Assembly (NCBI GenBank): GCA_030167865.1
Contig: JALAGF010005790.1
Coordinates: 61,951-81,950 of the forward strand
Reading direction: 5' to 3'
DNA length: 20,000 bases
From: Craspedostauros australis
Taxonomy: Eukaryota
Position numbers and translations under genes: made by a program. Below the pieces are notes generated by a model that did no database searches, was not told where the DNA came from, and saw only the letters and a list, made by a program, of their open reading frames with translations. Below, piece after piece: positions 992 through 3,601 of this stretch (the stretch's first letter is position 1; every line of letters starts with the position of its first letter).

Positions 992-1060
992 AAAGAATCG
1001 TTCAGCTGTTTAGATATTCTCAGGCTCCTGAGAATATCTAAACAGCTGAACGATTCTTTT
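991..1060. repeat. 70-bp perfect inverted repeat (34-bp arms, 2-nt loop)
   Basis: aaaagaatcgttcagctgtttagatattctcagg (991-1024), ct, cctgagaatatctaaacagctgaacgattctttt (1027-1060). Checked base by base. Confidence 0.97.
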
Positions 1061-1771
1061 CAAATTAGAAACAGCGTAAATTACTCAGACACAACAATTA
1101 ACATGTACTATATTGATCAGTGCCCAATTGAAAAACTTCAAAAGGTATACTTGATCAAGTTTTTTCAACTTTTAGCGTATCTGAAATCCTTGGATCACTA
1201 TAAAACAGCAAACTTAACGTCTAAGTATAGGCAGTATAAATTTCCGGTAAGAGACTTTTTTAATTATCTAAAGAACAACATAGTATTGGAACTTTTGTCA
1301 GATAAAAGCTATCGAATGTTGGTAACAATTCCTGAGGCTTACGTATGGAAGAGTCAAAATCAATGGATTACCCAAGTTTTGTTAGCGGATGAATTATTCG
1401 ATTATTCAGAACCATTTTTATTCACTGACTATTTCAGAAAAAAAAAAATGACAACAGATGAGTTCTCTGTATTATTTCATATCCTACAGAATTTCAGTGT
1501 TCCTACTCTTACAAAGGAATTCGATGTTCCTGGATTCTTGCGTAATTACCCTTCTAAGCTAAACGGTGCACGAAAGCAAAAAATCAAATGTTTATTTTTA
1601 CGTTATATCAAAATTTTACAGCAGGAAGAAAAAATTCAAGACCTAGTTTTGTTCCCTTCCCTTAGCACGTCTAACCCAAAGCGCCTAATTAAAATTTCTG
1701 ACTTAAACCAAAAACATTTAATGCAGTTGTTTGTTATTTTTGAAGTCCTTGATGTTCAATTTGTGATTTAG
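1058..1771 (+). pseudogene. probable C-terminal half of a diatom plasmid-type ~480-aa Rep-like protein (ORF track: 222 aa from ATG 1103)
   Basis: Frame open from 992 to TAG 1769-1771, reading FQIRNSVNYSDTTIN before ATG 1103. Segments QLLAYLKSL, KFPVRDF, SDKSYRMLVTIPE, LADELFDYSEPFLF and KIKCLFLRYIKILQ resemble, from recall, the C-terminal part of plasmid-related diatom plastid ORFs. Not verified by search. Confidence 0.6.
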
Positions 1772-1989
1772 GTTGAATACTTATTTGTTAAGAGTCTGAT
1801 AAGGAACAAAAAAAAGACTTACCTGTTAAGAACATACGAATAAAACTATGGACTTTTAAATATTTTTAACCAACAAGCCTAACTACAAAGAATAAGGTAA
1901 ACAATAAAATTAAAATACAAACCTTTAAAAGTTCGTATTTTAATTTGAAAAGGTCACTATTTTAATAACACACTGAACAAAGAAAAAAC

Positions 1990-2018
1990 TTGACAAAAAA
2001 AAGTTCAACTAATAAAAT
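1990..2018 (+). promoter_or_regulatory. sigma70-type promoter
   Basis: TTGACA (1990-1995), 17-nt spacer, TAAAAT (2013-2018), A-rich upstream tract; 54 nt before ATG 2073. Confidence 0.75.
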
Positions 2019-2072
2019 TAAATAAGCCAAAATCGTACTTTTGGTGGAAAATTTAACTTTAAAAATAAATTT

Positions 2073-2174
2073 ATGCAGGAACTCTTTTTAACAATATTTA
2101 AAATTTTAGCTACAGGGCTAGTATTTGGCCTTGCTGTTCAACTAGTAAAAATAATTAATCACATTAACATATGA
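2073..2174 (+). CDS. 33-aa hydrophobic small ORF (possible single TM helix)
   Basis: MQELFLTIFKILATGLVFGLAVQLVKIINHINI*. First ATG after the promoter; its TGA overlaps the next ATG (ATGA 2171-2174). Below the ORF track size cut-off. Confidence 0.5.
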   Translation: MQELFLTIFKILATGLVFGLAVQLVKIINHINI

Positions 2175-2203
2175 ACCCGTACGTATTCTACTTTATTTGC
2201 TAA

Positions 2204-2797
2204 ATGCTCGCAGCACAACAGATGGCAGTTATCGCCTTCCAAATACTTCCTGCCGCCATCGAATACGGCAAAAGTGTTGCTATAAATACGGCTGCCCAGG
2301 TAACTGCCTATGCGATAGGCACGGCTGTGAGCACAACTGTATCGCCCAATATGCTACTACCAGTATTAACCAATCCAGAATTTATTAGACAGCAGATCGT
2401 CGCTACTCCGACTGTATCACAAAAACTCGCAATTATTGCTTCGAGCGTTTCACTATTGACGGCGGGAGGCGTACTTAGCCTTACAGCCGACATAGCAACC
2501 AACGGGGGTATCGGTGGTGTTATCGCGGCTTACCTAGCTTACTTAGGCAGCAACGGAAGCCCAATGCCATTCATTATGCCTAAGCATAGAACAGATATGG
2601 TCATTGTCCATGCTTCTGTTGTCACAATTACCATAGGTTTTAATATACTCACAGTTAAGATAATAATTTATTTGGTTCGATCTTACATCAGACTCTGCGC
2701 ACACTGTTATAAAATTGCCAAAGGCCCAGAAGTGCTTTCTCCTGAAGAGTATAAAAAAGGATTAAAAAAAAGTCAAGCCTACGTTTATAGACCCTAG
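2204..2797 (+). CDS. hypothetical Ala/Gly/Val/Thr-rich membrane protein (197 aa; possibly 208 aa originally, from ATG 2171)
   Basis: Hydrophobic segments LAIIASSVSLLTAGGVLSL, GGIGGVIAAYLAYLG and VVTITIGFNILTVKIIIYLV, with a basic C-terminus. In-frame MNPYVFYFIC then TAA (2201-2203) directly precedes ATG 2204. Confidence 0.65.
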   Translation: MLAAQQMAVIAFQILPAAIEYGKSVAINTAAQVTAYAIGTAVSTTVSPNMLLPVLTNPEFIRQQIVATPTVSQKLAIIASSVSLLTAGGVLSLTADIATNGGIGGVIAAYLAYLGSNGSPMPFIMPKHRTDMVIVHASVVTITIGFNILTVKIIIYLVRSYIRLCAHCYKIAKGPEVLSPEEYKKGLKKSQAYVYRP

Positions 2798-2862
2798 TAC
2801 GGTCCCAGTTAGACGAAAAATAATCAAATCTACTCTCTTTAATAAAAACCTAACAAAATCAA

Positions 2863-3548
2863 ATGAAAGATACAATTTATACAGAAGATTTTGATTCATT
2901 AGAAACTGAGTCATTACGTATTGATTATCTACGGTTTAATTTGGAGTCATACTTACCTAACAGTGAAATTACCAATTTAGCAGTTTATTTTAGACGTTTA
3001 GGATTTAGTTCCTATATAAAAGAACGTGACAATATTAAAAAACGCACTTCAATCTTCTATGATAAGTATTTCGAGGTTACTTTTGTATTGCGCACCCCTA
3101 TTATCAAGGAACCCATTTAGAATTCGCAGGAGAATCGGCAAATCATCTGTATTCCTTTATCAAACAAAAAAAATTCAACTGGAACCAACTGAAAAAGTAC
3201 GGGGCTTTTCTAAGACGTACAGATACCTGTTATGATCGTATTCAGAAATCAACTGACAAAAGAAGCAATGATACATTTATTAAAAGTACTTTAGTTCACT
3301 TTAAAAATACTTTACCAAACAACAATATTGAATATCGAAAAAATAGGGAAGTAAAACTAACTGCAGTGGGACACACAACTAGCGATAAATATTACCGTGT
3401 GTACTTGAAAAGTGATTGCTTACGATTTGCATTTGAGCAGAAGCACCGAAAAACGTTAAATTCGTATGACAGTTTATTACAAACAAAACAATTTAAGCAG
3501 TTAGAGCAGTGTATTTCTTATGAGTTTTTAAAGCACACGTATCAGTAA
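2863..3548 (+). pseudogene. frameshifted, truncated N-terminal half of a Rep_trans-like rolling-circle replication initiator
   Basis: Frame +1 2863-3096 joins frame +3 3099-3548 if one base is restored at the CCCC run 3095-3098, giving ~228 aa. Motifs in order: IDYLRFN, GTHLEFAG, RTDTCYD, GHTTSDKYYRVYLK, LRFAFEQK. Confidence 0.8.
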
Positions 3549-3560
3549 TATATTAAGATC

Positions 3561-3594
3561 AATCTTGAAAAACTATTAATAGTTTTTCAAGATT
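3561..3594. terminator. 34-bp perfect palindrome, rbcS 3' stem-loop
   Basis: aatcttgaaaaactattaatagtttttcaagatt is self-complementary and lies 7 nt beyond the rbcS stop. Confidence 0.85.
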
Positions 3595-3601
3595 AATGAA
3601 A

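Follow-up and report, generated by a model that had tools for sequence, protein, structure and literature searches.

Some of the foreign DNA in plastomes is recognised as coming from diatom plasmids, which were reportedly sequenced in 1992. In the available parts of four papers (PMC2873285, PMC3971590, PMC8070900 and PMC9235467), the plasmid origin and plastid integration of their open reading frames (ORFs) are on record, and there the ORFs, including the largest, are still called hypothetical, with no account of how the plasmids replicate. Our full-text literature search, outside whose coverage most subscription papers lie, found no replication function given to the family discussed here, and the accessible portions of PMC11528492 and of a paper on a Leucomyxa plasmid hold nothing relevant to it. 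We compare this family with the Rep_trans initiators (RepC of pT181, RepD of pC221, RepSTK1 of pSTK1 and the inovirus initiators; PDB 4cij, 4cwc and 4cwe), whose motifs are described in the available sections of PMC4797284 and PMC5714925, and which a 2026 paper, as far as its available text goes, restricts to bacteria, with a distant sister family in archaea (PMC13107129). Our subject is a rep gene in a 20,000-nucleotide stretch of Craspedostauros australis DNA (assembly GCA_030167865.1, contig JALAGF010005790.1, positions 61,951 to 81,950), called the window throughout. We are rather confident that window positions 1002-3545 are an integrated plasmid, now decayed and without an initiator, and that the intact protein of its family, ~500 amino acids (aa) long, is most likely a rolling-circle initiator.

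The algal Rep family and the Rep_trans superfamily

When modelled and superposed, a check proposed by an earlier, sequence-only reading of this DNA, intact homologues of the window gene show the TBP-like, curved-sheet catalytic fold of the Rep_trans initiators, with which they also share the motif order (D, RxD, G, RxY, RxE), the Asp-Asp-Glu metal ligands, a beta-strand tyrosine and residence on small circular replicons. Indeed, the three ligands (D46, D142 and E214 in RepD; aligned with D9, D116 and E196 of RepSTK1) are kept in 120, 132 and 131 of 132 members, the catalytic tyrosine (Y181, in model beta-strand 176-183) in 131 and the arginine two residues before it (R179) in 130, and there is no HUH motif (no invariant histidine in A1). 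The likeness is looser elsewhere: motif II (T/SxY/ExG) is reduced, with its glycine in 104/132 and T-x-Y absent, the motif III lysine (YxKxxE) is found in 77/132 overall and in 28/28 of the closest subfamily, and identity in structural alignments is 13-14%. Since the displayed scores against PF02486 (11.7-18.8 bits, best E 3.4e-5) fall below its gathering cut-off of 29.6 bits, we file these proteins as a separate family within the Rep_trans superfamily rather than in PF02486 proper. A comparison with RepSTK1 alone by hhalign was insignificant, though the motifs were aligned; NCBIfam returned no initiator model for 28 close homologues, the family profile had no match among PDB sequences at E<=10, and the ESM Atlas gave only unnamed clusters for Rep.

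The sequence-only reading had inferred a Rep_trans-type nickase function for diatom plastid ORFs of this kind. At the level of the family, sequence and models support the Rep_trans assignment: in these ORFs of algal plastids and plasmids, the N-terminal domain has both the fold and the active site. The protein as a whole does not fit so neatly, given its place below the Pfam cut-off and an extra half of ~250 aa, apparently with tandem winged helices. Likewise, the profile match that had been called for is found, below cut-off, in intact homologues, and the repaired window piece alone scores no higher than 200 shuffles on Rep_trans profiles. The C-terminal half may resemble the WH1-WH2 iteron-binding initiators (RctB domains 2-3, RepE, pi and RepA), to which it shows 7-10% identity and a root-mean-square deviation of 4-7 Å, with no Pfam match, but those are theta initiators without a nickase; a sequence-level comparison with Rep_3 initiators was dropped, the matches being near-identical. 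Rep-Arvir (archaeal RepSNJ2, DUF7845), shown to initiate rolling-circle replication according to the available part of PMC13107129, similarly places a winged-helix region after a divergent TBP-fold nickase; however, it has one MarR-like winged helix-turn-helix plus a C-terminal domain and escapes detection by sequence, while a profile does link the algal family to bacterial Rep_trans. Pfam scans of the algal family gave no match to DUF7845.

Searched against 1.84 billion representatives, the family profile retrieves 1,720 protein clusters at E<=0.001, of which 962 reach E<=1e-10. The named members in these homologue clusters come from Heterosigma (Heak293_Cp026), Haslea silbo (QUS63770.1) and Cylindrotheca closterium (ULD16154.1) and are indeed labelled hypothetical in their sources, as the sequence-only reading had said; pCf1 ORF482 and pCf2 ORF484 presumably belong here too. 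In contrast to the known Rep_trans initiators, the home of the family is algal plastids and associated circles. Two loci (L053 and L060), of 3.4 and 3.7 kb and with 127-bp terminal repeats, are complete circles; besides rep each holds a single cargo ORF and a tyrosine recombinase, which is partial in L053. Two loci repeat in units of 4,027 bp; the free circles probably reside in plastids.

Permutation and decay of the window copy

The window, whose genes we take from their translations to be petD, rbcS/rbcL, sufB/C, the atp operon, ftsH, trnP and 16S rRNA, comes from the plastid of a diatom-type alga and sits at the end of an 82-kb contig in a 66-Mb assembly; ~3.1 kb of non-core DNA separates petD (8-427) from rbcS. 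Within it, on the + strand, lie the 5' part of the rep pseudogene (2863-3098, aa 1-79, 82% aa identity to aa 1-79 of the intact homologue P0024) and its catalytic part (3099-3545, aa 80-228). Every motif listed by the sequence-only reading is in the place and frame it gave: in frame 1, IDYLRFN (2920-2940), whose Asp codon (2923-2925) is that of motif N', equivalent to RepD D46 and aligned to RepSTK1 D9, and in frame 3, GTHLEFAG (3108-3131), RTDTCYD (3216-3236, RxD at 3216-3224), G-x3-S-x4-RVYLK (R-x-Y-x-K, Tyr 3402-3404) and RFAFEQK (motif IV, 3423-3443). The base that it took to be missing is supported indirectly, by alignment: the C-run at 3095-3098 has four C where the closest intact homologue (L007, 90% DNA identity over 695 nucleotides) has five, the sole gap of that alignment; frame 1 runs into a stop past the C-run, at 3118-3120, and the frame is kept at this position in 20/20 metagenomic loci with a readable match there. 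With X at the break, the read-through has the proposed length of 228 aa, and a family profile built from 23 members matches it at E 1e-39, but it is only half of a ~510-aa protein, and its stop at 3546 is an insertion junction. Two of the three ORF fragments once assigned to it belong, while 3026-3235 is an off-frame ORF; Pfam gave no match for the two pieces of the front half and nothing relevant for window pieces.

The rest of the gene lies upstream, at 1002-1771. When ORF222 (1103-1771, starting at an internal Met at 1103) was searched for longer proteins it gave 33 matches of 421-513 aa, and P0024 maps onto the window in permuted order, with aa 1-79 at 2863-3099, aa 70-228 at 3069-3545 and aa 249-505 at 1058-1765. 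The 3' half of rep (1058-1771, +, aa ~249-505) is 72% identical to P0024 and corresponds in models to the probable tandem winged-helix region. In DNA alignment, the TCAG that ends plasmid homology at the right junction (3542-3545, +) and that at the left junction (1002-1005, +) are the identical four bases of the intact gene, window 3545 matching homologue local position 1358 and window 1002 matching 1355; by a rough estimate, chance alone would bring two independent fragments so near each other in ~0.6% of cases. We infer that a small algal plastid plasmid (1002-3545) integrated by a single crossover at TCAG, midway through rep and 12 bp past the hairpin downstream of rbcS. The back half now comes first and the front half last because the circle would have opened inside its own rep gene. 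The locus itself is a dead fragment, of value for how cleanly it records an integration by way of rep.

The left junction has since turned into a 45-bp, 93% inverted repeat (980-1071) built from rep codons ~228-250, which introduces a stop at 1039-1041 and a net loss of 8 nucleotides, is not found in intact homologues, and folds at -40 kcal/mol versus -7 to -11 in four intact genes; being specific to this window, it was rejected as a replication origin. The back half also has a 21-codon in-frame deletion near 1255-1263 and is a mosaic of two subfamilies (over aa 361-400, 95% to P0023 versus 70% to P0024), and its substitution counts are for these reasons unreliable. In the front half, derived nonsynonymous and synonymous changes number 28:3 on the window branch versus 6:9 on the sister branch to L007 (Fisher p 6e-4), the former ratio being compatible with neutrality (p 0.25) and the latter not (p 7e-4). 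Seven of the 75 positions invariant among 28 close homologues are altered in the window, whereas in a leave-one-out control 27 intact members alter 0-3 and one alters six. One of the seven is the motif IV glutamate, by alignment a metal ligand, which is alanine in the window (codon 3429-3431), so that RFAFEQK is not the intact RxExExK it had been taken for; all 28 close homologues read RFEFEHK. A conserved arginine has likewise become threonine (3375-3377, +), and the conserved upstream leader is missing.

Judged by its sequence, then, the window copy is dead: it no longer encodes an initiator, and restoring one base yields not the continuous protein once proposed but a split, decayed pseudogene without the metal-binding glutamate. 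It could be argued that the base was lost only in the assembly and that the window encodes a working 228-aa nickase, given that the break falls in a homopolymer. We find this hardly credible, as the lost ligand, the altered invariant positions, the excess of derived changes, the detached C-terminal half and the absent leader are all independent of the indel, and the core plastid genes of the window keep long unbroken ORFs.

Replication, mobility and alternative readings

By analogy with RepD and RepSTK1, the N-terminal domain of the intact protein would bind Mg or Mn through its Asp-Asp-Glu triad, and the beta-strand tyrosine would nick one strand, so priming leading-strand synthesis, and later reseal the circle; fold and residues point to such nickase activity, and so to rolling-circle replication by the family. 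The tandem winged helices may bind the origin, replacing the helical domain of pT181-type proteins, and the adjacent recombinase may resolve multimers or integrate the circle. An alternative is that the protein nicks for mobilisation or integration, as a MOBT/NicK-like relaxase of an integrative element with its own tyrosine recombinase, and not for vegetative replication. Rep_trans does take in relaxases of integrative and conjugative elements, according to the available part of PMC5714925, a tyrosine recombinase follows rep at 18/20 evaluable ends (24 ends, 26 loci), and one metagenomic member was auto-named 'DNA relaxase NicK'; we nevertheless think this unlikely, as rep is the sole possible initiator ORF on the circles L053 and L060, and conjugation genes were not recognised in the subset of locus ORFs scanned. 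Still less probable is theta, iteron-type replication through the winged-helix half with nicking as a secondary role, a very doubtful proposal when metal ligands and tyrosine hardly vary across 132 diverse members, the window's own model matches winged helices weakly, and no iteron array appears in the aligned flanks, where no dedicated search was made.

The free circles might instead belong to alga-associated bacteria or inoviruses, leaving only dead captures in plastids. In favour of this, cyanobacterial Rep_trans proteins come closest among the prokaryotic relatives seen, one of them beside a Zot-like ATPase in an inovirus-like setting (L065 3-2190), and 185,579 prokaryotic genomes, scanned with one pattern, yielded the family on three contigs of 3-4 kb in bacterial metagenome-assembled genomes (MAGs). 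We consider it quite improbable, however, because 72,556 plasmids gave no match, 50,697 phages only noise (E=4) and viral contigs none, because two samples of 401 genomes each held strong matches nowhere but in the seed MAG, and because the named members are algal; the MAG contigs, at ~30% GC, are probably mis-binned. Cyanobacterial ancestry of the family is only a lead.

Between window and L007, synonymous divergence is lower for rep (0.22-0.26) than for rbcS (0.93) and part of rbcL (0.48), which suggests that rep elements move between hosts. Further rep copies in the same assembly are broken (C5790 at ~48-50 kb, and C2472) or open-ended (C17 and C443). The first of these places (L051 6328-8452, G000:C5790 ~48.3-50.5 kb; L052 1752-1880; L051 8474-8569) holds two tandem broken reps with tyrosine- and serine-recombinase fragments and is a second plasmid-derived island on the same plastid contig.

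Returning to rolling-circle initiation, we lean, if only modestly, towards a wider picture in which algal plastid plasmids are a eukaryote-resident branch of the Rep_trans replicons, possibly descended from cyanobacterial inovirus- or plasmid-type Reps, with a nickase fused to an iteron-type tandem winged-helix region, mobile between algae and repeatedly integrated into plastomes, often surviving there only once rep is broken. If so, two initiator classes usually kept apart would be joined in one protein, and an intact rep with its origin would make a native episomal vector for diatom plastids, a replicon of interest for algal engineering. A Rep_trans-type initiator would make plasmid replication directly testable through a named tyrosine and metal ligands, extend the superfamily into eukaryotic organelles and give a large family an annotation; its intact members suggest how algal chloroplast plasmids might copy themselves, by a type so far described from bacteria and archaea.

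Cargo, neighbouring sequences and related islands

A decayed palindromic block at 1906-1966 (75% over 61 nucleotides to L015, E 8e-6) is a probable recombination site, since in intact elements it sits between rep and the tyrosine recombinase; no recombinase remnant was found in the window (best E 0.19). All 11 tested members of this subfamily pair with a tyrosine recombinase, unlike the diatom and raphidophyte plasmid ORFs, and a serine recombinase was rejected as partner. ORF197 (2204-2797, +) is an intact, hydrophobic plasmid cargo with a homologue beside rep and recombinase in L019 (E 7.5e-7), no convincing Pfam match and nothing at or above 0.8 in the ESM Atlas. A sigma70-like site (11/12) precedes it at 1990-2018, promoter-like counts being at chance level overall.

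A CTCTTTAATA stretch at ~2835, which resembles nick sites, was rejected, as the regions upstream of homologues do not conserve it as such; no intragenic origin signal was found in rep and no replication origin was identified. The missing leader is a block of conserved non-coding sequence, TTCTGTAACC...GGTTCGATTCCC, that contains a motif like a tRNA T-loop and lies ~40-75 nucleotides upstream of the rep start (L007-L025; 11 loci displayed), and is a candidate leader RNA, attachment site or origin.

On the host side of the right junction, a 40-bp hairpin directly past the rbcS stop (3558-3597) is probably the rbcLS terminator. L007 has an independent plasmid island immediately after rbcS (507-976 and downstream), with rep in the opposite orientation relative to rbcS, and the rbcS 3' end may for this reason be an insertion hotspot. 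In Kryptoperidinium, palindromes border plasmid-like regions, one of them near rbcS, according to the available part of PMC2873285. The ~550 bp from petD to the left hairpin (428-980) contain a perfect 25-bp inverted repeat at 585-645 and match none of the loci fetched for comparison.

Upstream of the rep copy on G000:C443 (L004), the minus strand carries a 120-aa ORF (1905-2264, weak Colicin_D match, E 0.001) and a 168-aa ORF (1441-1944, weaker colicin-immunity match, E 0.25), possibly a nuclease-immunity (addiction) pair on an algal plasmid; pairs of similar appearance occur in L014, L025 and L050. In L014 (3415-5901, 829 aa) and L030 (187-1854) an unrelated C-terminal region lengthens the rep frame, and a short immunity-like ORF takes the place of the recombinase after it. 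Finally, the same plastid islands hold Walker A ORFs resembling CRESS-type Rep helicases (L025 3466-4029 and 10053-10619) and another family of ~300-aa ORFs (L007 3143-4138 and 7872-8732), which seem to point to a second plasmid class.
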